A stretch of DNA of 64,000 nt. Origin: Patescibacteria group bacterium. Its GTDB lineage: Bacteria; Patescibacteriota; Microgenomatia; Levybacterales; UBA12049. This document shows, one piece after another, positions 4,904 to 64,000 of the stretch. The stretch is from the NCBI GenBank assembly GCA_035946335.1, contig DASYZL010000006.1, positions 106,594-170,593 on the forward strand, written 5' to 3'. The number at the start of each line of letters is the position of its first letter. Position 1 is the stretch's first letter. The translations under genes and the position numbers were made by a program. Below the pieces are notes generated by a model. It did no database searches, was not told where the DNA came from, and saw nothing but the letters and a program-made list of their open reading frames with translations.

Positions 4904-4912
4904 TGATACAAT
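4904..4912 (+). promoter_or_regulatory. Extended -10 element TGATACAAT 6 nt upstream of the rmuC ATG (leaderless-type promoter)
   Basis: TGnTACAAT followed by catctc and then ATG at 4919. Confidence 0.4.
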
Positions 4913-4918
4913 CATCTC

Positions 4919-5944
4919 ATGACTCTTAACCTTCTTCTGCTCACAAGCATTTTATTCATTGGTTTCATTATTGTTCTTTATCTTCTTTTGAAAAAATCCC
5001 AGCAAAAACAATCCGTTGACCCAATGCTTCTGGAATGGATGAAATCAATGCAAACCTCAGTAGACACGACACAAAAGATTCTTCATGAAACATTGCATAG
5101 TAATTCGCAACACCTTACCCAAACACTTCAGGAAAATACCAAACAGCTTAATGAACGCATGGATAAAGCAGCACAGGCATTAAGCGCTGTCAATAAAGAA
5201 GTTGGGAAGATGAGTGAAATCGGGAGAAATATGCAGGAATTGCAGGATTTTTTGAAAAGCCCTAAACTTCGCGGCAACATTGGAGAACAAGTATTGCAGG
5301 ATTTGATTAGACAAATCTTCCCCAAAAATTCCTTCCATATACAATATGCGTTCCAGTCAGGGGAAAAAGTTGATGCAGCAATACAAACAGATGCAGGCAT
5401 ATTGCCAATTGACGCAAAATTCCCTGCTGAGAATTTTCAGAAAATGGTAAAAGCAGAAAATGAAGAAGAGCGCCAGCTTTTTAGAAAAGAATTTGTCAGA
5501 GATGTAAAAAAACACATTGAGTCAATTTCCAAAAAGTATATTGTCCCCTCAGAGGGAACAATGGATTTTGCACTCATGTATGTTCCTAGCGAAACGGTGT
5601 TTTATGAGATTGTTTGCATAGATGATATGCTGGAATTTGCCCGAACCCATCGCGTCTATCTTGTCTCACCAAGCACATTGTATGCGCATTTGCAAACTAT
5701 TTTATTGTCATTTGAGGGAAAGAAAATAGAAACAAAAAGCAAGGAATTGTTTGCTATTTTTCGCTCCCTCAAAATTGATTATGAAAAGATTGATGACTCA
5801 TTGCAGACTTTGGGAAAACATATCACAAATGCTTCTAATCAATACAATAATGTCTTATACGGGTTTGACAAAATGGGGAAAAAACTATCTTCTTCCCAAC
5901 AAATTACCTACGAAGAAAAACAGCTTCTTGAAGAAACTGTATGA
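4919..5944 (+). CDS. rmuC: DNA recombination protein RmuC
   Basis: 341 aa; N-terminal TM helix, coiled-coil region and the RmuC core (LRGNIGEQVL, VDAAIQTDAGILPIDAKFP, MYVPSETVFYEI). Confidence 0.85.
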   Translation: MTLNLLLLTSILFIGFIIVLYLLLKKSQQKQSVDPMLLEWMKSMQTSVDTTQKILHETLHSNSQHLTQTLQENTKQLNERMDKAAQALSAVNKEVGKMSEIGRNMQELQDFLKSPKLRGNIGEQVLQDLIRQIFPKNSFHIQYAFQSGEKVDAAIQTDAGILPIDAKFPAENFQKMVKAENEEERQLFRKEFVRDVKKHIESISKKYIVPSEGTMDFALMYVPSETVFYEIVCIDDMLEFARTHRVYLVSPSTLYAHLQTILLSFEGKKIETKSKELFAIFRSLKIDYEKIDDSLQTLGKHITNASNQYNNVLYGFDKMGKKLSSSQQITYEEKQLLEETV

Positions 5945-7485
5945 TGCGAAAACACTTCTTCACATTTTTCCTTTTATGTATTCTTGCACTCGGACTCTTT
6001 TTGCGGACATACCGCTTAGATAGTGTTCCCTTCGGATTCTTTTGCGACGAGGCAGCAATTGGTTACAACGCATATACTATTCTGACAAAGGGAACTGATC
6101 AGTATAACATTTCTTTCCCTGTTTTCTTCCGCTCATTTGGCGACTACAAAAGCCCTGTGGAAATTTACAGTACTGTCCCGAGCATTTTATTATTCGGACT
6201 GAATGAATTCTCGGTTCGTGTTGTTTCTGCCTTGTATGGTGTTCTTGCGATTTTTGGATTATATCTCCTAACAAAAATCTTGCTGCAGGATAGACAACAA
6301 AATGAAATTCCATCTTTTTTTGCTTCTCTCTTGCTTGCTATTAGTCCCTGGTTTGTTCATTTAAGCCGGATAACCATGGAAGGCTTTGCACCATATGTCT
6401 GTTTTACGGTTTTCGGAACATATTGCTACATACGCTCACGAGGTAAGTCATGGCTACTTGTTGCTGCAGCTGTTTGCTTTGCACTAGCTATGTACAGTTA
6501 TTTCCCTTCTCGCATTTTTATTCCTCTTTTTGTTATTGCACTATTATGTATTTATCGGTATGTTCCTAATAAACCTTCTCTTTGGCTCGCAATAATAGGA
6601 ATTATCATTATTGCCGCATACCCTTTTGTCCAAACGTTTCTCGACGGATCACTTTTTGCAAGGTGGGATGCAGTCAACATATTTAATCAGCAGCAAAAAA
6701 ATGAATCAGTTCTGCAACACATTGCAATAAACTACATTCGCCATTTCAGCTCTGATTTTTTATTTTTGAAAGGAGATATTGATATGCCCGGGCAGTTTAT
6801 TACACGCCAATCGGTAAGAGGAATCGGGGAATTGTATTGGTTTCAATTACCATTACTTCTCATTGGCTCCTGGTATTTGATTCGTAAACGTACAAAAACA
6901 TCATTGCTTTTACTTGCCTGGTTTCTTTTGTATCCAACAGGTAGTATTTTTACCACAAGCGAAAGCCCTTATGCAACACGATCTGTTATCGGCGTTATTC
7001 CTTTTTCAATTCTCTCCGCAATTGGAGGATGGTATTTTTTTACGTTAATAAAAAAATATAATAATAGCAGACTCTCTATTGCGAATCTTGTCATCTTCTC
7101 TTTTGTCTTTATCGCGTCTTTCCTGCAGTTTTTCTATCTGTATTTTTCTGTGTATCCTCTCTATTCTTCTGATTATTGGGGTTGGCAGTATGGAGCAAAA
7201 CCGATTGTCCAGTATTTCGCAAAACATGAACAGCAGTATGATACTTTATACATGGAAGGCGTATTTAATGGACCTGATATTTTTATTCCCTTTTATGCAC
7301 CGGGAAATTGTAGAAATTGCTCTATAGGAACTCCCGACCAGTATTATAATCCCCGGCAAAAACAACTGTTTGCCATTTCTCAAAACTATTTTCAGAATAA
7401 TAGACTATCGAATTTTAAAATCCAAAAAACTATTTATTATCCTGACGGACAAACCGCATTTTTGATTGGAACTATCAGCAGGTAA
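5941..7485 (+). CDS. Polytopic membrane glycosyltransferase, GT39/GT83 (PMT/ArnT-like) family
   Basis: 514 aa with many TM segments. The N-terminal FFCDEAAIGYNAY...FPVFFRSFGDYKSP loop with a DE motif is typical of PMT/ArnT-type 4-amino-4-deoxy-L-arabinose/mannosyl transferases. ATGA overlap with the rmuC stop. Confidence 0.65.
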   Translation: MMRKHFFTFFLLCILALGLFLRTYRLDSVPFGFFCDEAAIGYNAYTILTKGTDQYNISFPVFFRSFGDYKSPVEIYSTVPSILLFGLNEFSVRVVSALYGVLAIFGLYLLTKILLQDRQQNEIPSFFASLLLAISPWFVHLSRITMEGFAPYVCFTVFGTYCYIRSRGKSWLLVAAAVCFALAMYSYFPSRIFIPLFVIALLCIYRYVPNKPSLWLAIIGIIIIAAYPFVQTFLDGSLFARWDAVNIFNQQQKNESVLQHIAINYIRHFSSDFLFLKGDIDMPGQFITRQSVRGIGELYWFQLPLLLIGSWYLIRKRTKTSLLLLAWFLLYPTGSIFTTSESPYATRSVIGVIPFSILSAIGGWYFFTLIKKYNNSRLSIANLVIFSFVFIASFLQFFYLYFSVYPLYSSDYWGWQYGAKPIVQYFAKHEQQYDTLYMEGVFNGPDIFIPFYAPGNCRNCSIGTPDQYYNPRQKQLFAISQNYFQNNRLSNFKIQKTIYYPDGQTAFLIGTISR

Positions 7486-7498: not shown

Positions 7499-7507
7499 TG
7501 TGCTACA
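7499..7507 (+). promoter_or_regulatory. Extended -10 TGCTACAAT, 13 nt upstream of the helicase-nuclease ATG
   Basis: TGnTACAAT at about 7499-7507; ATG at 7521; no SD. Confidence 0.35.
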
Positions 7508-7520
7508 ATCAGGACACTTC

Positions 7521-10670: not shown

Positions 10671-10676
10671 TATAAT
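10671..10676 (+). promoter_or_regulatory. -10 hexamer TATAAT immediately upstream of the rnpB 5' end
   Basis: TATAAT at about 10671-10676; the P1 helix of RNase P RNA begins at about 10681. Confidence 0.35.
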
Positions 10677-10680: not shown

Positions 10681-11029
10681 TTGTCCTAGGAAGATACGTC
10701 ACTACTGTCCGCAAGGATAGAGGAAAGTCCAGACAGGTGAAAAAACGGGGACGGAACGTAAGTTCCGACGAGTAATCGCTGGTGTTTCCCTTCTTTTTCC
10801 ACATATGGAAGGGAGAACACATTTTGGAATAACAAAATGTGAGAGCAACAGAGACGAGTGGATATGAAACGGGCAATCCCACCTGCTGCAACCTCCGAAC
10901 GTGTGCGTTGATATGTTTTTCAGGAGCACCGATGAGAGGGCACCACGTCAAATCGTGGCAGGAATGACAATATCATTTCTGAGATAGATTGTGACATAAC
11001 AGAATCTGGCTTACTCCTTCCTAGGACAA
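10681..11029 (+). ncRNA. rnpB: RNase P RNA (bacterial type A-like)
   Basis: P1 helix TTGTCCTAGGAAG (10681-10693) pairs perfectly with CTTCCTAGGACAA (11017-11029). P4 strands AGGAAAGTCCAGAC and ACAGAATCTGGCTTA match the universally conserved GGAAAGTCCGG / ACAGAAcCCGGCTTA, with compensatory CCGG to CCAG/CTGG changes. Confidence 0.8.
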
Positions 11030-11088: not shown

Positions 11089-12108
11089 CTATTTTTCTAT
11101 TTTTCCCAGTGAGAACTCCAAAAGAATTTTAATAATTGCAGCAATCGGCACGGCAAGAATAAGTCCTAAAATCCCCCATAGGTGTCCTCCTGCGATCACT
11201 GATAAAAAGACAACAAATGCAGGAAGCTTGACAATCTTTCCCATGATATGCGGGATAACTACGTAATCTTCTATTTGGCGAAAAATAAAATAAATGATAG
11301 CAATAATAATTGCGCACTGAAATGCATTCAAACCAAAATTAGCGTGTCCGGTAATCAGAAGGACAAAAATACTCACAACAGCTGCAGTAATGGGGCCGAC
11401 AATCGGCACAAGCTCTGCAAGCCCTGAAAAAACAGCTAGCACACCTGAAAATCGCACCCCTAAAATGACTAAGGGAATAAAAATGGCAACAGACATCAGA
11501 CATATAAGAAATAGCTGTCCCCGCAAATACTGTGCGAATACTGTGTTGAATTTCTGGAACAATGTTTCTACTTCACTTTTATAGCGTGCAGGAATAAATT
11601 CTAATCCTTCTTTGTACATCGAATTTCCATCCTGAAGAAAATAAAATCCTGAGACAAGAAAAATGAAAAAGTTAATAATACGGGATACTGCTTTGGGAAA
11701 ATACGGCAGTAATGAGAGAGACGAACCGAACTGTGAATGCTGCAGTGCAACAAGCATACTTCGCGCAGAGGGACGAAGCCAGTCAGGAAGCGTATTGATT
11801 TGACTCTTTGTTGTTAGAAGAAGTGATGTTGCATAAGAGCGAATCTCAGAAGACTCCACAAATAACGTACGGGCAACAATAGTTCCTATACAGATAAGAA
11901 TCGTCATGAGTACGAGATATACGATAAAAACCGCAATTGATCGGGGAAGTTTTGCTTTTTTGGAAAAGAAATTGACAATTGGATTAAACAAATAAGCAAA
12001 AATTCCACCAATGACTATTGGAGCGAGGAGTGATCGTTCAATATAAATGAGCCACAAGAGAGATACTCCAAGAAGAAGATAAAATATAGTTCGCAAACGA
12101 ACTGTCAT
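11089..12108 (-). CDS. AI-2E family transporter (PerM/UPF0118)
   Basis: 339 aa, about 8 TM helices with the typical AI-2E layout. A TATAAT lies 10 nt upstream of the ATG (12119-12124 on the minus strand). Confidence 0.75.
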   Translation of the reverse strand: MTVRLRTIFYLLLGVSLLWLIYIERSLLAPIVIGGIFAYLFNPIVNFFSKKAKLPRSIAVFIVYLVLMTILICIGTIVARTLFVESSEIRSYATSLLLTTKSQINTLPDWLRPSARSMLVALQHSQFGSSLSLLPYFPKAVSRIINFFIFLVSGFYFLQDGNSMYKEGLEFIPARYKSEVETLFQKFNTVFAQYLRGQLFLICLMSVAIFIPLVILGVRFSGVLAVFSGLAELVPIVGPITAAVVSIFVLLITGHANFGLNAFQCAIIIAIIYFIFRQIEDYVVIPHIMGKIVKLPAFVVFLSVIAGGHLWGILGLILAVPIAAIIKILLEFSLGKIEK

Positions 12109-12170
12109 AGCAGCCTTTATTATACTCTCTGTTAAACTCCCTTGTCCAGAATCTTGCCAAAAAGTAATAG

Positions 12171-13790: not shown

Positions 13791-14774
13791 TTATTCATTT
13801 GCCTTAACAAACACATCACGGATAATATCTTCAATGTCCGGGTCTTCGATGGTAATGTCCGCAATAGAAAATGATTTGAGAAGATTTGCAATCGTTTCAT
13901 TTGCTTTTGCTTGGGAGACACGAAGCAAAAGCTGCCCGGATTGAAATTCTTTTATTTCTCCTTCCAACTTTTCTATTTTTTTTTGGTCTGGTGTCTCGCG
14001 GAAAACAACAGAAATTAATTTATAGGGTGCAAATTTTTTCACCAGATGCGAAAGCAACCCGTCAAAAAGAATGGTTCCATGATTAATAATAATGACTCGC
14101 TTACAAAGAGCTTCAACATCTCCCATATAGTGGCTTGTTAAAATAATCGTTGCTTTATACTTTTCATTGTATGCTTTGATAAACTCCCGCAATTTTTTTT
14201 GCATAACAACATCAAGACCAATTGTCGGTTCGTCCAAAAAAAGTACTTTAGGATTATGTAAAAGCGCTGCAACAAGTTCGCATTTCATGCGTTGTCCTAA
14301 GGAAAGCTTACGCACTTGCACTTTGAGAATATCTGCGATATCCAGAAGTTCCACCAGATCCCGAAGCGTTTGATCAAACTGCTCTTGCGATACTTCGTAA
14401 ATTTCCTTATTCAGAAGAAACGTTTCCATTGGAGGCAAATCCCACCATAGCTGATTCTTTTGTCCCATTACCAGTGAGATTTGCTTGAGAAATTGTTTTT
14501 TCCGCTCAAACGGTGTATACCCCAATACTTGCACTTTTCCAGAAGAAGGGTACAAAAGACCAGAAAGCATTTTTAACGTTGTTGTTTTCCCTGCACCGTT
14601 CGGCCCGATAAATCCGATAAGTTCTCCCTCCGTAATGTCAAAAGAAACATCTTTGACTGCTTGAATTGTTTGGTATTTTCTCGCAACCAACGATTTTATC
14701 GAGCCAAAAAAGCCTGGTTCTTTCTGGTACGTTTTATATTGTTTTGACAAGTGTGAAACACTAATAATCGCCAT
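13791..14774 (-). CDS. ABC transporter ATP-binding protein
   Basis: Walker A GPNGAGKTT, signature LSLGQRMK and Walker B LFLDEPTIGLD. Start trimmed to MAIISVSHL (the track started at 14816). A TATAAT lies 1 nt upstream of the preceding in-frame ATG, so the transcript probably starts at this Met (leaderless). Confidence 0.85.
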   Translation of the reverse strand: MAIISVSHLSKQYKTYQKEPGFFGSIKSLVARKYQTIQAVKDVSFDITEGELIGFIGPNGAGKTTTLKMLSGLLYPSSGKVQVLGYTPFERKKQFLKQISLVMGQKNQLWWDLPPMETFLLNKEIYEVSQEQFDQTLRDLVELLDIADILKVQVRKLSLGQRMKCELVAALLHNPKVLFLDEPTIGLDVVMQKKLREFIKAYNEKYKATIILTSHYMGDVEALCKRVIIINHGTILFDGLLSHLVKKFAPYKLISVVFRETPDQKKIEKLEGEIKEFQSGQLLLRVSQAKANETIANLLKSFSIADITIEDPDIEDIIRDVFVKANE

Positions 14775-14792
14775 AACCATTATTATAAACCA

Positions 14793-14841: not shown

Positions 14842-15114
14842 TTATCGAACCACCTTTTTTAGTGTTTTTCCTGGAGTAAATCCCGGAGCTTTTCTGGCAG
14901 CAATAGTAATCTTTGCGCCTGTTTTCGGATTACGGCCGGGTCGGGCTGCTCGTTTACGAACGGAAAAAGTTCCAAAGCCGGTAATTACCACCTTTTCCCC
15001 GCGTTTTAATGAATCGCGAACAGCATTAAGAAATGCTTGAACAGAATCTCGAGAAGCTTTATTCGTAAGATTTGCTTTTTTTGCAACAAGATCAATCAAA
15101 TCTCTTTTTGTCAT
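14842..15114 (-). CDS. hup: DNA-binding protein HU
   Basis: 90 aa; HU/IHF family signature ...GFGTFSVRKRAARPGRNPKTGAKITI... Confidence 0.9.
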   Translation of the reverse strand: MTKRDLIDLVAKKANLTNKASRDSVQAFLNAVRDSLKRGEKVVITGFGTFSVRKRAARPGRNPKTGAKITIAARKAPGFTPGKTLKKVVR

Positions 15115-15221
15115 ACACTCACCTCCTTCTGGACAGAATCAATTGGATCTACAATACAACGTAAATGAACAGTTTGTCAAGAGAACAAAGCAGATCAGAT
15201 GATACTGACAATGAATACTAT

Positions 15222-16466
15222 TTATGCAGCTAAATTTTCCCCAACAACAGCACGGAATTCCCGGATCGCTGTTACTTTCACTTCTCCAGGAATCGCAAGT
15301 GCCTGGCTAATTTCATCCCGAAGTTTTTTTGCAAGAATGATTGTTTGAGCATCATCTAAAATACCAGGATCAATGATTACCCGTAATTCTCGACCAGCTT
15401 CAAATGCGTATGCATCTTCAACGCCTTCATATTTTTTTGCCATATCTTCCATTTCTTTTAACCGCTTCGCGTAATTCTCAACGTCTTCATAGCGTGCGCC
15501 CGGTCTCCCGCCGGATACCTGATCAGCGATATGTACGATAACTGATTCAATACTCGAGAACGGTTTATCTTCATGATGTTCTGCAACGCAATTAATAATT
15601 GCTTCTGGAATATTATAGCGCTTAAGCAAATCAACGCCTAACTTGACATGGCTTCCTTCTCCCTCAACAACTTTACCGATGTCATGAAACAAACAGCCAA
15701 GTTTGACAATATTGACATCAGCACCAATTTCTTCTGCAATGTGCATGCCGATTTTTGTTACCTCCAAAGAATGTGTTACCAGATTTTGTCCATAAGACGT
15801 TCTGAATTTGAATCGTCCCAATGTTTTGATTAAATCTACCGGCAAATTATATACACTAACCTCATGTGCTAACTTTTCACCTTCCTGGAACATAATTGTT
15901 TCAACTTCCTCTTTTACTTGATTCACAACTTCTTCTATGCGGAAGGGTTGAATGCGAGTATCTTTCAGGAGCATTTCCACAGCACGTCTAGCAATTTCGC
16001 GCCGTACTGAGTCAAATGATGAAAGTCTGATAACTCCTTCTTCGTCCAAGTCAATATCAACACCTGTTGCGCTTTCAAGTGCACGAATATTACGTCCCTC
16101 TTTACCGATAATCCGCCCTTTCATTTCCTCGTCTTGAACTTTGATGATAGAGACGGTAAATTCCGCAACATAATTAATTGCACCGTGGCGCATTGCTTCT
16201 ACTAAAATTTCCTGCGCTTTCCTGTCTGATGTTGCTTTTGCCTCTTCTTCACGTTCCCGGATAATTTTTGCAATAGCGGCAGATTCTGATTGCTCAACTT
16301 CGCGTAACAATGCTGTTTTTGCTTCTTCCTGGGTAAGATGCGCAACATTCTGGAGTTTTTCTTTGTAGTTCTCTTTCTCTTTTTCCAGTTTTTCTTTTAA
16401 TACATCAAGCTTTTCCTGTTTTTCGAGGAGTTTTTTCTCTAGTTCTAGAATATCTGTTTGTGCCAT
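15222..16466 (-). CDS. rny: Ribonuclease Y (KH + HD domains), without the usual N-terminal TM helix
   Basis: 414 aa; coiled-coil region, KH domain (GKEGRNIRALESATGVDIDLD) and HD domain (HSLEVTKIGMHIAEE...CLFHDIGK). It sits just downstream of recA-recX as in Firmicutes. Confidence 0.85.
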   Translation of the reverse strand: MAQTDILELEKKLLEKQEKLDVLKEKLEKEKENYKEKLQNVAHLTQEEAKTALLREVEQSESAAIAKIIREREEEAKATSDRKAQEILVEAMRHGAINYVAEFTVSIIKVQDEEMKGRIIGKEGRNIRALESATGVDIDLDEEGVIRLSSFDSVRREIARRAVEMLLKDTRIQPFRIEEVVNQVKEEVETIMFQEGEKLAHEVSVYNLPVDLIKTLGRFKFRTSYGQNLVTHSLEVTKIGMHIAEEIGADVNIVKLGCLFHDIGKVVEGEGSHVKLGVDLLKRYNIPEAIINCVAEHHEDKPFSSIESVIVHIADQVSGGRPGARYEDVENYAKRLKEMEDMAKKYEGVEDAYAFEAGRELRVIIDPGILDDAQTIILAKKLRDEISQALAIPGEVKVTAIREFRAVVGENLAA

Positions 16467-18172: not shown

Positions 18173-18219
18173 AGTAGCAACTTTGTGCTAAAATGCAATA
18201 TATCGAAGTGGTACACTTT

Positions 18220-18291
18220 CGGGGCGTAGTTCATCGGTAGAACGCTCGGATGGGGTCCGAGAAGTAGCATGTTCAATTCATGTCGCCCCGA
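18220..18291 (+). tRNA. tRNA-Pro (anticodon GGG); CCA not encoded
   Basis: Manual cloverleaf fold. Acceptor CGGGGCG/CGCCCCG (7 bp), D-stem GTTC/GAAC, anticodon stem CTCGG/CCGAG with loop AT-GGG-GT (G37), T-stem GCATG/CATGT with loop TTCAATT, discriminator A. Confidence 0.75.
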
Positions 18292-18297
18292 CAGAAA

Positions 18298-40557: not shown

Positions 40558-40563
40558 ACGTGC

Positions 40564-44741: not shown

Positions 44742-45050
44742 TCACATCTTTATTTCAATATCTACGCCGGCAGGAAGCTCTAAATGACCAAGACTATCCA
44801 TTGTTTTTTCTGTTGGAGAAACGATGTCAATAAGTCTTTTGTGGACACGGATTTCAAAATGGTCACGGGCATTTTTATAAATGAATGGAGAAGCCTGCAC
44901 TGCATAAACCGTTCGGTCGGTCGGAAGTGGTACTGGTCCGACAACTTTTGCACCAGTCCGGATTGCAGTATCCAGAATCTGCTGACAACACGCGTCAATA
45001 ACGCGTGCATCATATGCTTTGAGTCGTACTCGTATTCTTCCTTTTGGCAT
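44742..45050 (-). CDS. rpsJ: 30S ribosomal protein S10
   Basis: 102 aa; ...[38 protein letters not shown]... and ...[31 protein letters not shown] match S10 over its whole length. Confidence 0.9.
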   Translation of the reverse strand: [102 protein letters not shown]

Positions 45051-45124: not shown

Positions 45125-45177
45125 TTGACAGATCCTGCTTTTTCTGACTATTATCAAAGAGGGGACAAAAAGGAGGT
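45125..45177 (+). promoter_or_regulatory. Sigma70-like promoter TTGACA-18-TATTAT plus strong SD AAAAAGGAGGTGA for the Met-rich protein/msrA pair
   Basis: -35 at 45125-45130, -10 at 45149-45154, SD at 45169-45177, ATG at 45184. Confidence 0.45.
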
Positions 45178-45183
45178 GAACGT

Positions 45184-45582
45184 ATGGCACGAAAAACAGT
45201 CGCAACAATAACACGAAAAACGATGATCATTGTCACTGTTATTACACTTTTTGTTGGTGCACTTTTTGGGTATGAAATCGGAAAAGCAAAATATATTGCA
45301 AAAATGGCCTTGGTACAAGGAGGACTCATGCAGCAACTGGAAGATGTAAAATTACAAGTTCAGGCTGTCAGAATGCAAAGCGGATTTATCATGAAGGGCA
45401 ACAGTATGTATGTTATTAATGCCGGACAAATGATGCTTATGGATAAGAATATGACCCTAAAAGATGGGACAGAAGTAACAACAACAGGGCAAGTAATGAT
45501 GAAAGACGGCACGACACTATTGATGCAAAATGATCAGGCTCTTACAGCAGACGATAAACTGATAAACGTATCGATGGACTAA
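45184..45582 (+). CDS. Methionine-rich membrane-anchored protein (about 12% Met) of unknown function
   Basis: 132 aa; N-terminal TM helix, then a soluble region containing MM/MxM clusters (GQMMLMDKNM, TGQVMMKDGTTLLMQ). Confidence 0.55.
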   Translation: MARKTVATITRKTMIIVTVITLFVGALFGYEIGKAKYIAKMALVQGGLMQQLEDVKLQVQAVRMQSGFIMKGNSMYVINAGQMMLMDKNMTLKDGTEVTTTGQVMMKDGTTLLMQNDQALTADDKLINVSMD

Positions 45583-46197: not shown

Positions 46198-46680
46198 TTA
46201 TTCTATTGCTTTTACCAGAGTCAAGTCATAATCAAGAAATCCTAAAGTATGATATAGCGCAATAGCTTTTGAGTTGGCATAGTAAGCAGAAACTCCGATA
46301 CGGTTACATGTTTCTTTTCTGAATGTTGCTATCAATGCACGATACAAAGCATTTCCAACTCCTTTTCTCCTTTGTTCTTTAAGGACAAACCAATCCTCAA
46401 TAAATCCCTCTTTATCCAAAATTCTGTATGATTTTTCTTTAATATCGCCGCAAATATAACCAACGAGTTTTCCGTCAAGCTCTGCAACAAAAGTAAAATA
46501 TTGGGGATCTTCGATAAATTTTTTAGCAAACTCGGCAAGCGTTTTCTCTTTATCTTTTGATTGTATAAAAGGCATAAGAGTTTTTGGAAAAATTTCTTCT
46601 TGATCATAGTATAAAGCAAATTGTTGTATGAGAAAGAGCAATTGCTGTTTATCTTTCTTTATTGCTTTACGAATTAACAT
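46198..46680 (-). CDS. GNAT-family N-acetyltransferase
   Basis: Start trimmed to MLIRKAIKKDK... (the track started at 46746); acetyl-CoA-binding motif RRKGVGNALYRALI. Confidence 0.7.
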   Translation of the reverse strand: MLIRKAIKKDKQQLLFLIQQFALYYDQEEIFPKTLMPFIQSKDKEKTLAEFAKKFIEDPQYFTFVAELDGKLVGYICGDIKEKSYRILDKEGFIEDWFVLKEQRRKGVGNALYRALIATFRKETCNRIGVSAYYANSKAIALYHTLGFLDYDLTLVKAIE

Positions 46681-46686
46681 AAAACC

Positions 46687-46695
46687 ATTATAGCA
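46687..46695 (-). promoter_or_regulatory. Extended -10 TGCTATAAT 6 nt upstream of the GNAT ATG (leaderless-type)
   Basis: Minus strand ...tgcTATAATggtttt-ATG. Confidence 0.35.
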
Positions 46696-46702
46696 AACGC
46701 AT

Positions 46703-46724
46703 AAAAAAATCCGCATGAAGCGGA
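46703..46724 (-). terminator. Rho-independent terminator downstream of tuf
   Basis: Minus strand UCCGC-uucau-GCGGA followed by UUUUUUU, starting about 25 nt after the tuf stop. Confidence 0.5.
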
Positions 46725-46748
46725 TGAAAAGGTCTGTAAATAACAAAT

Positions 46749-47945
46749 TTACTTAATAATCTTTGTGATAACGCCTGCACCAACTGTTTTACCGCCTTCG
46801 CGGATAGCAAAACGGACGCCTTCTTCAAGAGCAACTGGTACAATCAGTTGGACTGTCATTTTTGTATTATCTCCCGGCATTACCATTTCTGTTCCTGTTG
46901 GAAGAGTTACGCTACCTGTTACATCGGTTGTACGAATGTAAAATTGCGGCCGGTAACCGGTGAAAAACGGTGTATGTCGTCCACCCTCTTCTTTTGCAAG
47001 AATATATACTTCTGCTTCAAATTCTGTGTGTGGCGTAATGGAACCTGGTTTAACAATAACCTGTCCACGCTCAACGTCATCTTTTTCAATGCCACGAAGG
47101 AGCAGTCCAACATTGTCTCCTGCTTGACCTTCATCGAGTTGTTTTCTAAACATTTCAACACCGGTGACAACTGATTGTACTGTGGGACGAATACCGACTA
47201 ACTCAACTGCCTCATTTACCTTAACAATTCCTCGCTCAATTCTTCCGGTAACAACTGTTCCTCGTCCTTTAATAGAAAAGACATCCTCAACTGGCATCAA
47301 GAATGGTTTGTCTGTATCACGAACCGGATCAGGGATGTAGTTATCAACTGCGTCCATAAGGTCAAGAATTTTCTGCTCTGCATCTTTATCGCCTTCGAGC
47401 GCTTTCAAAGAAGAACCACGGATTACCGGCACATCATTTCCTGGATATTGATATTTTGTTAACAGTTCACGAACTTCCATTTCTACCAAATCAAGCAGTT
47501 CCGGATCTTGCACCATGTCACATTTATTCATGTAGACAACAATTGCTGGTACACCAACTTGCCGAGCGAGAAGAATGTGTTCGCGAGTTTGCGGCATTGG
47601 ACCGTCTGGCGCTGAAACAACAAGAATTGCTCCATCCATTTGTGCTGCACCAGTAATCATGTTTTTAATGTAATCAGCGTGGCCAGGAGCATCAATATGG
47701 GCATAATGTCGTTTTGCTGTTTCGTATTCGATGTGGGTAATGTTGATCGTAACGCCTCGGGCTCTTTCTTCCGGGGCATTATCAATGTCTTCGTATTTTT
47801 TCGCTTCTGCTTTTGTTCCCTTTTCTGAAGCATATTTTGCCAAAACAGTTGCAATTGCTGCAGTGGTAGTTGTTTTTCCGTGATCAACGTGACCAATCGT
47901 TCCAATATTAACGTGGGGTTTGTTTCGTACGTATTTATCTGCCAT
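46749..47945 (-). CDS. tuf: Elongation factor Tu
   Basis: 398 aa; [14 protein letters not shown] and NKCD GTPase motifs. Confidence 0.95.
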
Positions 47946-47985
47946 AGATTAAAAAAAGATCTCAACTCTTTGTGAGACTGGATGC

Positions 47986-48014
47986 ATCATACATCATTTC
48001 TTTTTTTCCGTCAA
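47986..48014 (-). promoter_or_regulatory. Consensus-like sigma70 promoter TTGACG-17-TATGAT for tuf
   Basis: Minus-strand -35 TTGACG, 17-nt spacer, -10 TATGAT, about 40-nt leader before the tuf ATG. Confidence 0.45.
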
Positions 48015-48054
48015 CACCCAAAATGAAAAAAATATATGGTATGATGAGTTGTTT

Positions 48055-48918: not shown

Positions 48919-49377
48919 GCAGCTTTGTATATCACTCATTAGTTGTGGCGGAATATTTGTTGCAGAGGTTATACGAGCAAGATCCTGCGGTTTGTATTGC
49001 GTTATAACCTTCTGGAGAATGCAATTACATGCAGCCGCTTGAGATCCCAGTACTGTTTTGCAGGTCAGTGCAAATTGCTGTACGAGTTGTGGAGTAAACT
49101 GCCCAATTGCCGATACCGACGCTGCTGATTGTTGCATCGATTGCTTGAGGGGGATGGGGGATGGAGAAAGCGGGAGTACAACAGTTTTTGGAATGGCATT
49201 TTGATATATTGCGATAAGAAAGAAGGCAACTGCACCAATACACAAAAGTGCAATACCTGCAGTCAAAAAAACAGCCGGCTTATTACTGTCTGTTGTGTGG
49301 ATGGAGCGTAAACTGGTAAATGTGAGAAAAAAACCAATACCAACAAAAAGCAGCATGAGTAACGCAAAAAGATTCAT
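48907..49377 (-). CDS. Hypothetical membrane protein (two TM helices plus a Cys-containing soluble domain)
   Basis: 156 aa; no recognisable family. Confidence 0.4.
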   Translation of the reverse strand: MNLFALLMLLFVGIGFFLTFTSLRSIHTTDSNKPAVFLTAGIALLCIGAVAFFLIAIYQNAIPKTVVLPLSPSPIPLKQSMQQSAASVSAIGQFTPQLVQQFALTCKTVLGSQAAACNCILQKVITQYKPQDLARITSATNIPPQLMSDIQSCLRK

Positions 49378-49417
49378 ATATTCATTATCATGCCTTTAAG
49401 CAAACCTTGTCAAGAAA

Positions 49418-50155: not shown

Positions 50156-50164
50156 TGGTATACT
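50156..50164 (+). promoter_or_regulatory. Extended -10 TGGTATACT upstream of fusA
   Basis: TGnTATACT about 34 nt upstream of the fusA ATG; leader contains AAAGGGGA. Confidence 0.35.
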
Positions 50165-50197
50165 CTGCTTATTCCCAAAGGGGAATTTTTCTTTGCT

Positions 50198-52309
50198 ATG
50201 GCAGACCAAACACTTAATCGTCATGCAGAACTGGATAAAATCCGCAATATTGGCATTATTGCACACATTGACGCGGGTAAAACCACAACAACCGAGCGCA
50301 TCCTTTATTATACCGGACGAACCTATAAAATCGGCGATATTGATGAAGGTAACACCCAAATGGACTGGATGGAACAGGAGAAAGAACGTGGAATTACTAT
50401 TGTCTCTGCGGCAACAACAACTTTTTGGAAAGACTATCGCATCAATATTATTGATACTCCCGGTCATGTTGATTTCACCGCAGAGGTAGAACGGTCACTT
50501 CGCGTCCTTGACGGTGGCATCACAGTCCTTGACGCAGAAGAGGGAGTACAATCTCAATCAGAGACAGTCTGGCGACAAGCAGACAAGTATAAAGTGCCGA
50601 GAATCTGTTTTGTGAATAAAATGGATAAACTAGGTGCGGATTTTTTTGCGACGGTTAAATCAATTGAGGACCGTCTCGGCGCAAACCCTGCAATCATGGT
50701 AATTCCCATCGGCTCTGAAAATACATACATTGGGAATGTTGATTTACTAACGAGAAAATCCTTTATATGGGGTTCCGATGAGCTTGGCGCGAAGTTTGAT
50801 GTGAAAAATGAAATTCCGCAAGATTTACAGAAAAAGGTTGAAGAATATCGACAAAAACTGGTTGAAAAAATTGCAGAAACGAACGATATATTGTTGGAGA
50901 AGTATTTGGCAGGTGATGAAATTTCTGTGGATGAGTTAAAAAAAGCTCTTCGTGCAGCAGTGATTGCGTATAAACTCGTCCCTATTTATGCCGGTACATC
51001 TTTGAGGAATAAAGGCGTGCAACCCCTTCTTGACGCTGTCGTTGATTATCTTCCTTCACCAGTTGATTTGGGCGAAGTAAGAGGGGAAAATCCAAAAACA
51101 AACGCAGAAGAAATCAGAAAGTTAACCCCTGAGGAAACAATGTGTGGCCTTGCATTTAAGATTCAGATTGATCCGCATGTTGGAAAACTCACCTACTTTC
51201 GCGTATATTCAGGGAAAATGCAAGCAGGATCATATGTATACAACAGCACGAAGCATGTCACTGAACGCATTGGGCGACTGTTACTAATGCATGCGAATAA
51301 CCGTGAGGAAATTAAAGAAGCGTATGCGGGGGAAATTGTTGCACTTGTTGGATTAAAAGATACCATTACCGGGGATACGCTATGTGATGAGGAATCGCCA
51401 ATTGTCCTTGAAAAAATTACCTTCCCTGAACCGGTTATTTCTCTTGCAATTGAACCACAAACAAAAGCAGACCAGGAAAAACTCGGCCTTGCGCTCAAAC
51501 GACTTACCGAAGAAGATCCAACTTTTACCGTAAAAACAAACCACGAAACAAATCAAACTATTATTTCCGGTATCGGCGAATTACAGCTTGAAGTCATGGT
51601 TGACCGGATGAAACGGGAGTTCGGTGTTGTTGCCAATGTCGGTGCACCACAAGTCGCATACAAGGAAACAATCAAGCAATCAGCGCAGGGAGAAGGGAAA
51701 TATATTCGCCAGTCAGGAGGACGGGGGCAATACGGCCATTGTTGGCTACGCTTGGAACCCAAGCCTCGTGGTGAAGGTAATGAATTTGTTAACTCGATCA
51801 AAGGCGGTGTTATTCCTGCAGAATTTATTACCTCTGTGCAAAAAGGAGTCAAAGAAACTGAAGAGAATGGTGTCCTGTTAGGTTACCCTGTCGTTGATGC
51901 GAAAGTATCTTTGTACGATGGGTCATACCATGAAGTTGACTCATCAGACGTTGCATTTAAAATTGCAGCAAGTATGGCATTCCAGGCAGCGGCAAAAAAA
52001 GCAGACCTTACGCTTCTTGAACCGGTAATGAAAGTAGAAGTCACAACGCCGAGTGAATATATGGGAGACATCATTGGTGACTTATCCAGTAAACGTGCGC
52101 AAATTCTTGGTACAGAAGAGCGCGCTCGCGCAACAATTATCAATGCGATGGTACCGCTCGCAGAACTGTCAGGATATGCAACGCAACTTCGCAGCATGTC
52201 ACAAGGAAGAGCAAGTTATTACATGGAACCTTCTCATTACGAGGAAGTACCGAGAAATATCATTGAACAGCTGCTTGCAAAATCTACGTTTACCGGACGG
52301 GTGGAGTAA
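50198..52309 (+). CDS. fusA: Elongation factor G
   Basis: 703 aa; [14 protein letters not shown] and NKMD GTPase motifs and EF-G domains II-V. Confidence 0.95.
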
Positions 52310-52903: not shown

Positions 52904-53569
52904 TTACTGTAAGGTAACGTGGATTCGTGATTGCAATAGATTTGCCGGTGATCCGAGCTGTGTTTTCATCTGCACCTGATACAAATCGTTCCCGCTTCCC
53001 AGTTGGACCGGTTGCGAAATAAGATACTGCGGACTTGCTCCACCGGAAAAGTACATGTCAGAATACCATACTTCATGTCCTGCGGTAACATCATACAGGC
53101 GTACCCATGCTGTTTCATTTGCCGTTGGAACCTGAATCGAAGCTTCAAAAATAACCTGCTTCAGGTGAGTATAGTTTGCCGGATTAATATACGTTTGTAG
53201 CCCCGCAACATCTGTCCAGTCAGTCGCAGTACTTTGCCCTGAACCAAAAGGAATATAATAATCTTTTGCTAAAATTACTTGCGCTACAACCGGAGTAACG
53301 GCAGAAACCGCCGGCTGTGGTGTACTCGTAGGAACAAATACAACTGTTGGCGTTGGTGTTAGTATCGATGGAGTTGATTGCACAACGTTTTGCATTTGCT
53401 CTAAAAACGGCGCGTTTGGATTTTTCCGAATGAGTTGTTGCGCAAGTAAAACATCTACAAGGATAATATTTATTCCGATTGCAAATTCAATAACACTGAA
53501 AAGCTTTTTCCACCACGGAACAGAGTAATACATAAGGTAAGCGTAACGGAAAAGGGGGAAAAGAGTCAA
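52904..53569 (-). CDS. Hypothetical membrane-anchored surface protein (TM anchor, Pro/Thr-rich linker, C-terminal beta-rich domain)
   Basis: 221 aa; likely start at the internal MYYSVPWWKK...; linker TPTPTVVFVPTSTPQPAVSAVTP. Confidence 0.4.
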   Translation of the reverse strand: MTLFPLFRYAYLMYYSVPWWKKLFSVIEFAIGINIILVDVLLAQQLIRKNPNAPFLEQMQNVVQSTPSILTPTPTVVFVPTSTPQPAVSAVTPVVAQVILAKDYYIPFGSGQSTATDWTDVAGLQTYINPANYTHLKQVIFEASIQVPTANETAWVRLYDVTAGHEVWYSDMYFSGGASPQYLISQPVQLGSGNDLYQVQMKTQLGSPANLLQSRIHVTLQ

Positions 53570-61700: not shown

Positions 61701-62201
61701 ATGTCTTCCGGTTACTGGATCAACTGTTGCGGTAAAAAATACGCCTGGCGAACGGACGAGCTGATTGACAACTGCTCTTTCGATACCATTAATGACAAAA
61801 GTCCCATGCTCTGTCATTTGGGGGATGTCACCAAGGAAAATTTCCTGTGTGACGACTTTACCGGTTTTTTTATTAAGAAGGGCAGCTTCTACGTAGAGCG
61901 GTGCATCAAAGGTAACACCTTTTTTCATTGCTTCTTGCGGTGTGGTTGCGGATTTTCCCAAACGGTACTCTTTCAGTGTTAATGTCCAATTTTTCTCAGT
62001 AAAATCATCAATTGGAGAAATCTCTTCCAACATCCGCCCGATGCGTTTTTCTAAAAATTCTTGGTAGGATTTTTTTTGTATGGCAAGAAGATCTAATTTT
62101 GGAAGTGTTGAGTATGTTTTACCCCAGTTATGTCGAATGATAGGTTCTGTCACTTGTTTTGGCATTGGTAATAATTTTGGAATTAAGCAGTATCTCCTCA
62201 A
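58779..62201 (-). CDS. rpoB: DNA-directed RNA polymerase subunit beta
   Basis: 1140 aa; conserved beta-subunit regions. The true start may be the internal MPKQVTEPIIRHNWGK (12 codons downstream). Confidence 0.95.
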   Translation of the reverse strand: MRRYCLIPKLLPMPKQVTEPIIRHNWGKTYSTLPKLDLLAIQKKSYQEFLEKRIGRMLEEISPIDDFTEKNWTLTLKEYRLGKSATTPQEAMKKGVTFDAPLYVEAALLNKKTGKVVTQEIFLGDIPQMTEHGTFVINGIERAVVNQLVRSPGVFFTATVDPVTGRHLYNAEIRPVHGSWLEFSTTRHGTITVKIDRRRKFPVTTFLRAIGLADTNLIKEKFTQVDTGNESFIENTLKKDETTTEIEALIEIFKKMHPGEPIVLDKVRESLHGLFFNNRRYDLGAVGRYKINKKLQNSDGFIPSDVHVLTLEDVIGTISYLMGLTKGVGHVDDIDSLANRRVRSVGELVASTAFRVGVLRLERSVKERMSLLQTDQPVTLGNLINARPIMASLNEFYRTSQLSTILDQTNPLAEIDNLNRLTVMGTGGISRERAAFSIRDINSSQYGRIDPIRSPEGPNIGLVTYLALYARVNEYGFLESPYRTVSKQGRKMIATDEIVYLDAEDEFKEYISHSGVLNEKDEIAAARVPARFKGEFLEVDKEQISYVDICPRQVVGTAASLIPFVAHDEANRALMGTHMQCQAVPLIRPESPIVGTGMEDVVAQVMGRVVKAPFDGEITHSDAKAVVIKGKNETKSYQLTSFMRTSNSTAYSQRVKVVAGQKVKKGDILIDGPASENGELALGQNLVIAYTSFEGLGYEDAIVISERLVKEDLLSSIHIEKYEAAVVETKLGPEETTRDIPNVSEEDLANLDEDGIVVVGSNVVPGDILVGKIAPKGETELTAEERLLRAIFGEQAREVRDTSLRMPHGERGTVVNVQTLDRKKGDELEAGTIRKIIVEVAQFRHVVVGDKLAGRHGNKGVISKILPEADMPYLADGTPVDIIIQPISVLARMNLGQILEAHLGWAARKLGMKIAVPVFESISEEKIIELLKKAGLPVTGKQTLYDGRTGEPFENDVVVGIEYIMKLIHMVEDKAHARSTGPYSLVTQQPLGGKAQMGGQRLGEMEVWALEAHRAQHILQEMLTYKSDDVTGRTKTFEAIVKGTQIPQAKVPESFKVLVKELQSLGLAVVPQGAKVAPEEDKKETSQELREEEKTETSAKEMEQVLGVDNVAEQDIASGLAEKAEIGENESPQNAEGEKA

Positions 62202-62268
62202 AAAAAAGAAACCGGGTACACTAACCCTTTTTCTTTCTGGTGCTGAGACTTACTCATTTATATCACAG

Positions 62269-62298: not shown

Positions 62299-62364
62299 TC
62301 GAGAAGCAATATGCATATACATAATACTCATAAAGTTCGTTAATCAACATTATTTTTTCACGCA

Positions 62365-62373
62365 TGGTATAAT
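62365..62373 (+). promoter_or_regulatory. Perfect extended -10 TGGTATAAT 6 nt upstream of the alaS ATG (leaderless-type)
   Basis: cgcaTGGTATAATcatttc-ATG; ATG at 62380. Confidence 0.4.
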
Positions 62374-62379
62374 CATTTC

Positions 62380-64000
62380 ATGAAAGCAAGGCAAATTATT
62401 GATACCTATGTCCAATTTTTTGAGCATAGGGATCATAAACGTATTCCCATGAGTCCATTAGTGCCGGACAATGACCCTACAACACTCTTTACTTCATCTG
62501 GCATGCAACCGCTTATTCCGTACTTATTAGGCGAAGAGCATTCCTCAGGTAAACGGCTTGTTAACGTACAGAACGCATTCCGCGCAGTTGATATTGATGA
62601 AGTTGGCAATAATCGTCATACAACGTTTTTCAGGATGCTTGGGAACTGGAGTCTTGGCGATTATTTTAAAAAAGAACAATTGCCATGGGTTTTCGCATTC
62701 CTCACAAAAGATCTGGGGTTAGACCCGAAAAAACTTTTTGTTAGTGTTTTTAATGGCTATCAGCAAATACCCAAAGATGAAGAATCAATTCTCTTATGGA
62801 AAGAGCTCTTTCGAGCAGCGAACATTGAAGCAAAAGAAGGAGAACGGATTTTTCCGTATGGTGTTGAAAAAAACTGGTGGAGCCGTTCAGGAACACCGGA
62901 CAAAATGCCAACAGGAGAACCGGGTGGACCGGATAGTGAAGTATTTTACGATTTTGGCGAAGCGTTAGGACTTCATGAGAAAAGTTCGTGGCGAAACGAG
63001 AAATGTCATATTAATTGCGACTGTGGACGCTTTTGGGAAATTGGCAATAGTGTTTTCATGCAATATCAAAAACAGGAAAATGGAACATTCAAACAGCTCC
63101 CCAAACAAAACGTTGATTTTGGCGGTGGCCTGGAACGGTTCATCGGCGTAACAGAAAATCAACCTGATATGTTTCAAACATCGCTCTTTTCCCCAACTAT
63201 TGCAGTTATTGCAGAGCTTACAGAAAAGCGCTATGAAAATGCAGAACATAGAAAGGCTATGCAAATAGTTGCAGATCATTTTGGGGGAAGTATGTTTATG
63301 ATCGCTGCTGGCGTTACTCCTTCAAATAAAGAGCAGGGATATATTTTGAGGCGGCTTATCAGACGAAGTCTTGATCATTTATGGACTCTGAAAAATGCAG
63401 TCACTGTTACTCCAATTCTTGAAACCATTACTCAACAGTATAAAGAAACAGATCCTGATCTTGTAGAAAAATTTGAGTCAATCAGCCTTACCATCCTGGA
63501 AGAAGAGCAAATATATAAAAGAACGCTTAGTCATGCGAAGAAGTTAATAGAAAAAGATATAAGCAATCCGGACAGGCAAATCGACAAAGTTAAAAAAGAA
63601 AAAGATTCTCAGCAGGAAGGAACGGCACATAATGATCTTCCCGGCATAAAACTGGGAGATGAACTTATGGGCACAGTGGAAATTTCTGCTGATACTGCTT
63701 TTAAGGCAATCTCTTCTTACGGTCTTTCACCAACACAGCTCAAAAGTCTTGGATATACTTTTAATAACCAGGAACTTGCTGAGAAAATAAAAGAGCATCA
63801 ATATCTTTCCCGTCAGGGGGCACAGCAAAAATTCAGCGGTGGACTTGCTGACCATAAAGAACGAACTATTATGGGTCATACTGCGACACATTTACTACAG
63901 CAGGCGCTTCGAGAGGTACTGGGAAATATCGTGCACCAGACAGGGTCAAACATCACGACGGAACGGTTACGGTTTGATTTTAACTTTGAGCGCAAGCTTA
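62380..64000 (+). CDS. alaS: Alanine--tRNA ligase, partial (3' end beyond the window)
   Basis: Manual translation gives MKARQIIDTYVQFFEHRDHKRIPMSPLVPDNDPTTLFTSSGMQP..., WSLGDYFK, GGGLER and the editing-domain HTATHLL motif. Absent from the ORF track because there is no stop within the window. Confidence 0.9.
   Translation, partial: MKARQIIDTYVQFFEHRDHKRIPMSPLVPDNDPTTLFTSSGMQPLIPYLLGEEHSSGKRLVNVQNAFRAVDIDEVGNNRHTTFFRMLGNWSLGDYFKKEQLPWVFAFLTKDLGLDPKKLFVSVFNGYQQIPKDEESILLWKELFRAANIEAKEGERIFPYGVEKNWWSRSGTPDKMPTGEPGGPDSEVFYDFGEALGLHEKSSWRNEKCHINCDCGRFWEIGNSVFMQYQKQENGTFKQLPKQNVDFGGGLERFIGVTENQPDMFQTSLFSPTIAVIAELTEKRYENAEHRKAMQIVADHFGGSMFMIAAGVTPSNKEQGYILRRLIRRSLDHLWTLKNAVTVTPILETITQQYKETDPDLVEKFESISLTILEEEQIYKRTLSHAKKLIEKDISNPDRQIDKVKKEKDSQQEGTAHNDLPGIKLGDELMGTVEISADTAFKAISSYGLSPTQLKSLGYTFNNQELAEKIKEHQYLSRQGAQQKFSGGLADHKERTIMGHTATHLLQQALREVLGNIVHQTGSNITTERLRFDFNFERKL

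Follow-up and report, generated by a model that had tools for sequence, protein, structure and literature searches.

We have studied the placing of a sigma-70-type −10 promoter element relative to start codons in a stretch of Levybacteria DNA 64 kb in length and of ~40% GC, called here the window, and in 80 related loci. About one third of the transcription units in Levybacteria have a predicted −10 box 6–10 nucleotides (nt) before the start codon, and the window very probably derives from an ultra-small, uncultured bacterium of the Candidatus Levyibacteriota, in whose genome a large minority of the transcription units are leaderless. This is not a new mechanism; it is the known leaderless architecture found in a further lineage. 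A preliminary description of the window had proposed widespread leaderless or near-leaderless genes, and that reading is supported by all the in silico tests run on it, i.e., spacing, consensus, position at operon heads, use of ATG and GTG, the element before rnpB and tRNA-Pro, the alaS genes of relatives and the starts of the NCBI proteins.

The window contains a ribosomal-protein (r-protein) cluster, rpoBC, tuf, fusA, recA, alaS and other housekeeping genes; it does not include rpoD. Its RpoB is 65–78% identical to RpoB of metagenome-assembled genomes (MAGs) labelled Candidatus Levyibacteriota or Patescibacteria, and the exact window proteins are on record at NCBI as HEV23395xx, from a 'Patescibacteria group bacterium' MAG. 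The comparison set of 80 Levybacteria loci (L001–L080, ~1.5 Mb) was gathered by searching with RpoB, and three further syntenic loci were obtained through RmuC homologues. The comparisons are confined to Levybacteria; the relatives listed by protein searches with AlaS and RmuC all have at least 61% identity, and where a taxon name is given, in a few cases, it is Levyibacteriota or 'Patescibacteria group'. Many MAG records with RpoB 65–77% identical are titled 'uncultured Gammaproteobacteria', 'Methylomirabilota', 'Lysobacterales' or 'Limnocylindrales' (examples are L003, L006, L009, L027, L039 and L053). These titles from outside the candidate phyla radiation (CPR), on records that resemble Levybacteria in RpoB, seem to reflect wrong taxonomic labels in public assemblies from third parties.

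Spacing between the element and the start codon

There are 24 TGNTANAAT sites on the two strands of the window, seven of which precede an ATG at 6–11 nt. The significance of this was assessed in an annotation-free test, where an ATG is counted only if it opens an open reading frame (ORF) of at least 100 aa. The expectation by chance is 0.36, giving a Poisson probability P = 1.1e-7 for the seven observed. In the 80 loci 129 of 476 TGNTANAAT sites have an ORF-opening ATG at 6–10 nt, with 6.5 expected.

The distribution of spacings has an abrupt edge. Among 994 genes called at their first ATG, TGNTANNNT is found at 6, 7, 8, 9 and 10 nt in 4.9, 3.7, 1.7, 2.0 and 2.2%, respectively. At 5 nt the value is 0.3%, and almost none of the sites lies nearer than 6 nt. 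It had been recognized at the outset that the motif might be equally dense at random internal ATGs. This is not so; at 20,818 internal ATGs TGNTANNNT occurs at ~0.1% per position, compared with 2–5% at gene starts. An extended −10 element lies at 6–10 nt before ~15% of gene starts in the 80 loci, and this signal is steady at 13–15.5% of genes across loci ranging from 65% to 78% in RpoB identity.

The same preference is seen when the sites themselves are followed. Of 184 strict extended −10 sites that lie within 150 nt of a start, 116 (63%) are placed at 6–10 nt. The density of sites per position is 23 at 6–10 nt, 1.5–1.8 at 16–30 nt in the same A/T-rich upstream DNA and 0.15 in the background. 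The peak stands 50–150-fold above background. There is no peak at 21–30 nt upstream of starts in the 80 loci, where the TATA box and B recognition element of the archaeal type (group D) would be expected at ~26 nt.

A separate feature of these loci affects scans for the shorter motif. Many junctions in the r-protein operons read TAAT-ATG, that is a TAA stop codon, a single T and the ATG of the next gene (e.g., at 22707, 23107, 32511, 33901, 35000 and 37193 in the window). These junctions generate a spurious peak of 'TANNNT at 0 nt', comprising 10.7% of the locus genes.

Promoter character of the element and alternative readings

Aligning the sites on the hexamer gives the consensus T(−15) G(−14) n T A t A A T, with a faint TTG at −35. 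At sites anchored on TANNNT the T at −15 is present in 61% and the G at −14 in 48%, and the commonest hexamer is TATAAT (129 of 365). A match of at least 5/6 to the −35 box is found at 20% of sites that lack the TG, at 8% of those that have it, and at ~1% at a control offset. Promoters characteristically show such a trade-off between TG and −35, and ribosome-binding sites (RBSs) do not, indicating that the element belongs to the former.

The position of the element in transcription units leads in the same direction. When starts are treated flexibly, a strong −10 is found at 6–10 nt before 34% of leading genes, 15% of tightly packed same-strand genes and 1% of intragenic controls. Overall, the element is ~3-fold commoner at operon heads (18–34% of leading genes against 6–15% of tightly packed same-strand genes). 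A motif of the group B type, placed before all genes including those internal to operons, is not what is seen; the element is enriched at heads and has the grammar of a promoter. Following TGNTANAAT at 6–10 nt there are 16 GTG codons where 2.9 are expected, and three TTG codons where 5 are expected. The enrichment after the motif is thus 20-fold for ATG, 5-fold for GTG and absent for TTG, as expected if the mRNA has to begin with its start codon. A −10 box and the start of transcription can be no closer together than the 6 nt at which the edge falls, which also fits a promoter. The same element lies upstream of the untranslated RNAs rnpB and tRNA-Pro, and at the GNAT and ABC ATPase genes the order is terminator hairpin, −10 and then ATG. 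Taken together, the grammar, operon heads, start codons, 6 nt edge, RNA genes and terminator order point to a promoter rather than an RBS-like element.

The alaS gene provides the best view of conservation. Its orthologs have an extended −10 at 6–11 nt before the ATG in 38 of 46 Levybacteria loci, with a plain TANNNT in 4 more, and the element keeps its position while the flanking sequence cannot be aligned between loci. The element is absent before rpoB (0 of 77) and rpsG (0 of 62), and is found at 1 of 35 fusA genes. A search with Tuf gave 25 matches, with the element at one and a Shine-Dalgarno (SD) sequence at three; only 7 of the 25 exceed 60% identity, and the others are EF-G or paralogous GTPases.

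Use of SD sequences in the 80 loci is close to background, with GGAG or GAGG at 3–13 nt upstream of 8.6% of genes and 7.7% of control sites. Among genes internal to operons the share is 14.7%, and among leading genes 6.9%. SD sequences are enriched 2–3-fold at 6–11 nt, and are present in r-protein genes, HU and DUF6799. They are found in none of the 145 genes with a start-proximal −10. A majority of genes (61%) have neither an SD sequence nor a −10 at 6–10 nt, and their upstream regions are A/U-rich and G-poor. The coexistence of two expression modes, leaderless genes and genes with −35/−10 plus SD, is therefore an incomplete description; a third and largest class has leaders that lack an SD sequence (tuf, fusA, rpoB, rpsJ, glnA, recA and infA). 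As SD sequences are rare overall, short SD-less leaders constitute the commonest mode.

We can propose how the leaderless genes would be expressed. A sigma-70-type promoter would be placed with its last T 6 nt (range 6–10, rarely 11) before the start codon. Usually this would be an extended −10 (T−15 G−14 n T A t A A T) whose −35 is weak or missing, and less often a plain TAnnnT with a good TTGACA. RNA polymerase would begin ~7 nt past the −10, at the A of the AUG where the spacing is 6 nt, or 1–5 nt upstream of it where the spacing is 7–11 nt. The resulting mRNA has no room for an SD sequence, and so its 5′-terminal AUG is presumed to be bound by the ribosome together with initiator tRNA. Initiation at a 5′-terminal AUG has been shown for leaderless mRNAs of Mycobacterium, Deinococcus, Caulobacter and lambda cI. 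The same type of promoter, located further upstream, would drive leadered genes and stable RNAs such as rnpB and tRNA-Pro. Operon-internal genes and a few highly expressed ones (HU and r-proteins) would use SD sequences, and most of the remaining genes would have short A/U-rich leaders without them. In this scheme the motif, the statistics of its spacing, its grammar and conservation and its agreement with the NCBI starts are observed; both the position of transcription start and the mode of ribosome recruitment are inferred.

Other explanations of the pattern can be considered. These could be real promoters whose proximity to genes is a passive result of genome compaction, giving variable short leaders with no dedicated leaderless translation. 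Beyond 30 nt from a start, extended −10 sites are few, and the SD-less leaders of 7–40 nt before infA, glnA, rpsJ, tuf and fusA indicate that short SD-less leaders are tolerated anyway. Yet compaction predicts a broad decay, and not the 15-fold peak at 6–10 nt relative to 11–30 nt with its abrupt edge at 6 nt. Nor does it account for an alaS spacing kept at 6–11 nt over RpoB identities of 65–78% while the flanks have diverged, or for the avoidance of TTG after the motif, which is expected if a 5′-terminal AUG or GUG is required. We therefore regard compaction as an improbable explanation. The view that the motif is not a promoter at all, but an A/T-rich non-SD ribosome-binding or translational-enhancer element within longer leadered mRNAs, is more improbable again. 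The likeness would be to an S1-binding site, or to the non-SD RBS that is used by Bacteroidetes (GeneMarkS-2 group B). Where SD sequences are so rare some other translation signal might be expected, and the motif does occur before closely spaced same-strand genes. However, the consensus is exactly that of a sigma-70 extended −10 and trades off with TTGACA at 16–18 nt. The operon-head enrichment, the element before untranslated RNAs, the terminator hairpins immediately upstream at GNAT and ABC ATPase and the hard 6 nt cut-off all stand against a translational signal.

The pattern might also arise by chance co-occurrence in A/T-rich upstream DNA, or as an artefact of the choice of start. Strings resembling a −10 are common at 40% GC, and a scan for two-hexamer promoters was uninformative, finding 42 and 62 sites compared with 44.9 and 52.1 in shuffled sequences. 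The discriminating signal is the extended −10 combined with its spacing from the ATG, and only that combination. Chance is excluded by the test that is independent of start calls and by the comparison of positions within the same upstream regions, and the pattern is repeated across 80 independent genomes. An in-frame TAA within TATAAT biases first-ATG calls only toward spacings of 2, 5, 8 and 11 nt, while the observed maxima fall at 6 and 7 nt. The probability that remains for chance is negligible.

Several observations weigh against the interpretation of leaderless transcription. The motif is found before 6–15% of tightly packed 'internal' genes, and some of these may be expressed mainly from polycistronic transcripts. 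The 5′ ends are inferred from the geometry of model organisms. The lack of SD sequences in the start-proximal class is partly trivial, as the −10 occupies the SD position. The 11 nt spacing of one of the named genes, the helicase-nuclease, is at the edge of the distribution. The agreement with the starts annotated by the NCBI Prokaryotic Genome Annotation Pipeline (PGAP; see below) is not fully independent, because its GeneMarkS-2+ component models leaderless starts. Finally, two properties fail to mark out the class. T is present at −1 in 53% of the genes with a start-proximal −10 and in 56% of other genes, and is not specific to the class. Low structure in the 5′ coding region similarly fails to separate the class from other gene starts.

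Both of these had been considered as candidate marks of leaderless genes. A pyrimidine at −1 as an indication that transcription begins with the A of the ATG was rejected, T being preferred in all gene classes (strongly so, at 56%, over the genes of the loci and window together). Weaker folding of the 5′ coding region was also rejected; the mean minimum free energy is −2.9 in this class, −2.6 at other starts and −4.3 in internal windows.

Comparison with known leaderless systems

Leaderless architecture has been validated by differential RNA sequencing in Mycobacterium and Deinococcus. The published bacterial cases comprise the TA-led genes (PMC3160421) and the group C genomes of GeneMarkS-2 (PMC6028130), including Mycobacterium tuberculosis, M. 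smegmatis, Streptomyces and Deinococcus deserti. Levybacteria resemble these in having TANNNT 6–10 nt before operon-first genes with no SD sequence, with ~25–50% of transcription units affected, with operon-internal genes more often having an SD sequence, and in the acceptance of AUG and GUG as 5′-terminal start codons. There are clear differences. Most of the known cases belong to high-GC Actinobacteria and Deinococcus-Thermus, where the TAnnnT is degenerate, whereas Levybacteria have 40% GC, genetic code 11 and the full TGnTAtAAT. Use of SD sequences outside the leaderless class is dominant in the known cases but near background in Levybacteria. Moreover, Levybacteria are an uncultured CPR phylum.

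Almost all group C genomes of code 11 are of high GC content (MetaGeneMark-2 preprint, 10.1101/2022.07.25.500264). The same preprint covers group C Mycoplasma with code 4. These are likewise small, A/T-rich and reduced genomes, with 30–60% of transcripts predicted to be leaderless. They differ from Levybacteria in phylum and genetic code, and their remaining genes are reported to have clear SD sequences, which in Levybacteria are barely enriched.

At the level of the promoter, the element is like the extended −10 promoters of E. coli galP1 and many Gram-positive bacteria, where the TG compensates for a weak or absent −35, and like the leaderless transcript of lambda PRM-cI, where transcription from PRM starts at the A of the AUG. 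The leaderless arrangement is, however, rare in E. coli, Gram-positive bacteria and lambda, while in Levybacteria 63% of the strict extended −10 sites near genes have it. A likeness to the non-SD Bacteroidetes and Cyanobacteria (group B; PMC5397173), which have low SD use and A/U-rich, G-depleted, unstructured upstream regions, is found in the ~60% of Levybacteria genes with neither an SD sequence nor a −10 at 6–10 nt. In contrast to group B, the element in Levybacteria is a promoter with fixed spacing at operon heads, and is not present in all genes.

Our full-text literature searches found no report of leaderless genes or transcription starts in CPR bacteria (including Patescibacteria, Saccharibacteria and Parcubacteria), and the searchable literature on CPR translation is silent on the recruitment of mRNA. 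A study of CPR ribosomes (PMC9297842) describes the lack of uL30 or bL9 and a short bS1, and notes that some Parcubacteria have lost the anti-SD sequence, without discussion of leaderless mRNAs. The present results offer comparative evidence for a CPR phylum in which leaderless mRNAs are used heavily and SD sequences hardly at all. They add a low-GC, standard-code lineage to a phenomenon mainly of high-GC Actinobacteria and Deinococcus, and bear on whether leaderless initiation is ancestral.

A broader proposal can be advanced only tentatively, and it may well prove too strong. In Levybacteria, and possibly much of the CPR, translation initiation might be essentially independent of SD sequences, with ~1/3 of units truly leaderless and the rest mostly having very short SD-less leaders. 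If true, it would suggest an archaeal-like or ancestral state accompanying the reduced ribosomes (PMC9297842). It would make this the first low-GC, standard-code bacterial lineage of leaderless type, and would mean that longest-ORF or Prodigal-style gene calls in CPR MAGs are systematically too long at the N-terminus.

Genes, start codons and stable RNAs of the window

The preliminary description had listed eight genes with TGnTAnAAT or TATAAT close to the ATG, and the motif is seen in the sequence at all eight (the first eight entries of Table 1). The spacing of 6–10 nt that was claimed for them holds for seven. The exception is the helicase-nuclease at 11 nt, which would be near-leaderless, with a predicted leader of 4–5 nt. 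At least three further strong cases exist, i.e., the genes for the cyclophilin peptidyl-prolyl isomerase (PPIase), RpoA and a SurA-like protein. Weaker cases with a good −35 and poorer −10 are two hypothetical genes with start codons at 49377(−) and 53533(−), the former having a predicted −35-dependent leaderless promoter, and the aldehyde dehydrogenase gene provides another weak case.

Table 1. Putative promoter elements of the window and the genes or RNAs that follow them
Feature	Element	Element position	Strand	Spacing or leader	Start codon or RNA	Region	Remarks
RmuC	extended −10 TGATACAAT	4904-4912	+	6 nt	ATG 4919		
UvrD/PD-(D/E)XK helicase-nuclease	TGCTACAAT	7501-7509	+	11 nt	ATG 7521		NCBI HEV2339534.1 starts at 7521
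AI-2E transporter	TGGACA-18-TATAAT	hexamer 12124-12119	−	10 nt	ATG 12108	12106-12148	
ABC ATPase	TATAAT	14787-14782	−	7 nt	ATG 14774 (second Met)	14772-14790	NCBI HEV2339538.1 starts at 14774
Mur-ligase-like gene	TATAAT	40552-40557	+	6 nt	ATG 40564	40549-40566	NCBI HEV2339581.1 starts at 40564; named cyanophycin synthetase by NCBI
GNAT	TGCTATAAT	46695-46687	−	6 nt	ATG 46680	46678-46725	NCBI HEV2339588.1 (160 aa) starts at 46680
S-adenosylmethionine (SAM) methyltransferase	TGGTATGAT	48037-48045	+	9 nt	ATG 48055		NCBI HEV2339590.1 starts at 48055
alaS	TGGTATAAT	62365-62373	+	6 nt	ATG 62380		NCBI protein starts at 62380
Cyclophilin PPIase	TGCTACAAT	50093-50085	−	7 nt	ATG 50077		NCBI HEV2339592.1 starts at 50077
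rpoA	TGGTACAAT	22104-22096	−	7 nt	ATG 22088		NCBI HEV2339548.1 (306 aa) starts at 22088
SurA-like gene	TGTTATACT	19659-19651	−	6 nt	ATG 19644		
Hypothetical membrane protein	TTGACA-18-GATAAT	ends 49384	−	6 nt	ATG 49377	49375-49413	
Hypothetical protein	TTGACT-18-TACGCT	53545-53540	−	6 nt	ATG 53533	53531-53569	NCBI HEV2339595.1 (209 aa) starts at 53533
infA-rpmJ-rpsM promoter	TGCTATAAT	23890-23882	−	14 nt	infA ATG 23867		
rnpB (RNase P RNA)	TATAAT	10671-10676	+	9 nt before P1 helix	RNA 10686-11028		
tRNA-Pro	extended −10 TGCTAAAAT	18186-18194	+	25 nt	RNA 18220-18292		
HU	TTGACA-18-TATTGT		−	leader with AGAAGGAGGTGAG	ATG 15114	15112-15180	−35/−10 plus strong SD
DUF6799/msrA operon	TTGACA-18-TATTAT, AAGGAGGTG		+		ATG 45184	45125-45186	
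tuf	TTGACG-17-TATGAT		−	~40-nt leader	ATG 47945	47943-48014	no convincing SD
fusA	TGGTATACT	50156-50164	+	33-nt leader	ATG 50198	50156-50200	no SD

The element recurs at orthologs of the named genes in the syntenic loci. For rmuC an extended −10 is placed at 6 nt in two of three, one of them with a GTG start, and for the helicase-nuclease the element lies at 6 and 7 nt in two of three. The AI-2E transporter has it at 9 nt in one of three. The ABC ATPase gene is present in a single syntenic locus (L082), where TGTTATAAT lies 8 nt before the start, after a terminator.

Seven window genes have disputed starts, their longest ORF opening at an upstream TTG or GTG; the longest-ORF calls add 2–22 spurious N-terminal residues. 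In all seven the NCBI/PGAP protein of the MAG begins exactly at the −10-proximal Met. The longest ORF of the helicase-nuclease opens at GTG 7500, within the −10, and that of the 53533(−) gene at a TTG that coincides with the −35 box. The ATG of the Mur-ligase-like gene shares its frame with a spurious TTG at 40507. At the ABC ATPase the TATAAT is only 1 nt from the first Met, and the start that had been predicted at the second agrees with both the spacing and the NCBI protein; a variant beginning at the first Met was not found among the NCBI protein records. The −10 of this gene is preceded by the terminator hairpin of HU, which falls within the TTG-extended ORF. At GNAT the hairpin upstream of the −10 is the tuf terminator (46725–46709). 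The suggestion that several ORF starts be moved to the Met following the −10 thus gave the right positions, but the public NCBI/PGAP annotation is already there, and the need to move them applies to longest-ORF or Prodigal-style calls only. The Logan calls for relatives are longer, with 324 aa for RpoA and 172 aa for GNAT. In practical terms, gene finders that take the longest ORF or are trained on SD sequences mis-call starts in CPR and Levybacteria MAGs, and the position of the −10 provides a simple correction.

The −10 of rpoA immediately follows the stop codon of S4, and would act as a leaderless promoter internal to the alpha operon. The promoter of infA-rpmJ-rpsM gives a short predicted leader of ~7 nt without an SD sequence; we take the N-terminus of the infA product to match that of E. 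coli IF1.

The TATAAT reported directly before the P1 helix of rnpB is indeed present, 9 nt upstream, with a predicted transcription start at ~10683. The RNA matches Rfam RF00010 (RNaseP_bact_a) over its full length with 43.5 bits and E = 3.4e-10, below the gathering score of 100. A large insertion (~68 nt) is present and several regions are shortened, and annotation at the gathering score would overlook the gene.

The group of genes that had been contrasted with the leaderless set, as having a classical −35/−10 plus SD, is mixed. The description is right for HU and DUF6799, both of which have a strong SD sequence, and it also applies within the r-protein operon. In contrast tuf has −35 and −10 boxes but no convincing SD sequence, and msrA has no SD sequence. 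A 'small ORF' placed in the same group is likely to be HU (15114–14842, −), although its identity is uncertain; S10 (45050–44742, −) has −35 and −10 boxes and lacks an SD sequence.

The predicted leader of fusA comprises a 5′-terminal hairpin AUUCCC-AAA-GGGGAAU (50171–50186), a U-rich 11-mer and the AUG. The hairpin could be a 5′ stabilizer or a standby site. The combination of hairpin and U-run was considered as a general leader for highly expressed genes and rejected, as a strict scan found it in 5 of 31 fusA and 1 of 7 tuf orthologs. In many relatives the 5′ regions of rpsL and fusA are made up of repeated U-rich units TTTTGAG or TTTTGAC with no SD sequence (loci L007, L009, L010, L030, L041 and L055), which may be an SD-independent translational enhancer.

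The gene rpsJ (S10; 44742–45050, −) is monocistronic and lies 4 kb from the rplC-led r-protein operon, of which it is normally the first gene. Here it is preceded by a separate promoter, TGGACA-17-TATAAT, and by a leader of 33 nt that lacks an SD sequence. The leader of the rplC (L3) operon (40514–40396, −) has an extended −10 TGATACAAT, followed after 10 nt by ATG 40495, which opens a 12-codon ORF encoding MIQLNQGGVVKE. A terminator-like hairpin of 13 bp with a U-run (40436–40407) lies just 5′ to the L3 ATG. This leader may act in attenuation or autoregulation and contain a leaderless upstream ORF.

A GC hairpin with a T-run is also found 30–45 nt upstream of the rpoB ATG (62165–62260, − in the window). 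Such a hairpin plus U-run precedes rpoB in 44 of 76 related loci, and presumably corresponds to the rplL-rpoB attenuator known from E. coli. There is no SD sequence at rpoB in 73 of 77 loci.

Two proteins seem to lack a usual region. Bacterial AlaS is usually ~870 aa in length. Here AlaS (P0001, 62380–64000, +) has just 647 aa, with 604–666 aa in relatives, and its NCBI name is 'alanine--tRNA ligase-related protein'; throughout Levybacteria the protein appears to lack its usual C-terminal part. RNase Y (15222–16466, −) has 414 aa and its match to Pfam RNase_Y_N begins at profile position 107, with 419 and 413 aa in the orthologs of L081 and L083. The usual N-terminal membrane anchor region seems to be absent.

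Finally, TGTTAAGAT lies 6 nt upstream of the ATG of a small ORF beginning MIVEIVGIFATLFSMIAFIPQAIQTW (24132–24372, +). This ORF ends after 53 codons and resumes in another frame (ORF 24178–24372), and is either a frameshifted pseudogene or the result of an assembly error. From its motif we take the product to be PQ-loop/SemiSWEET-like.

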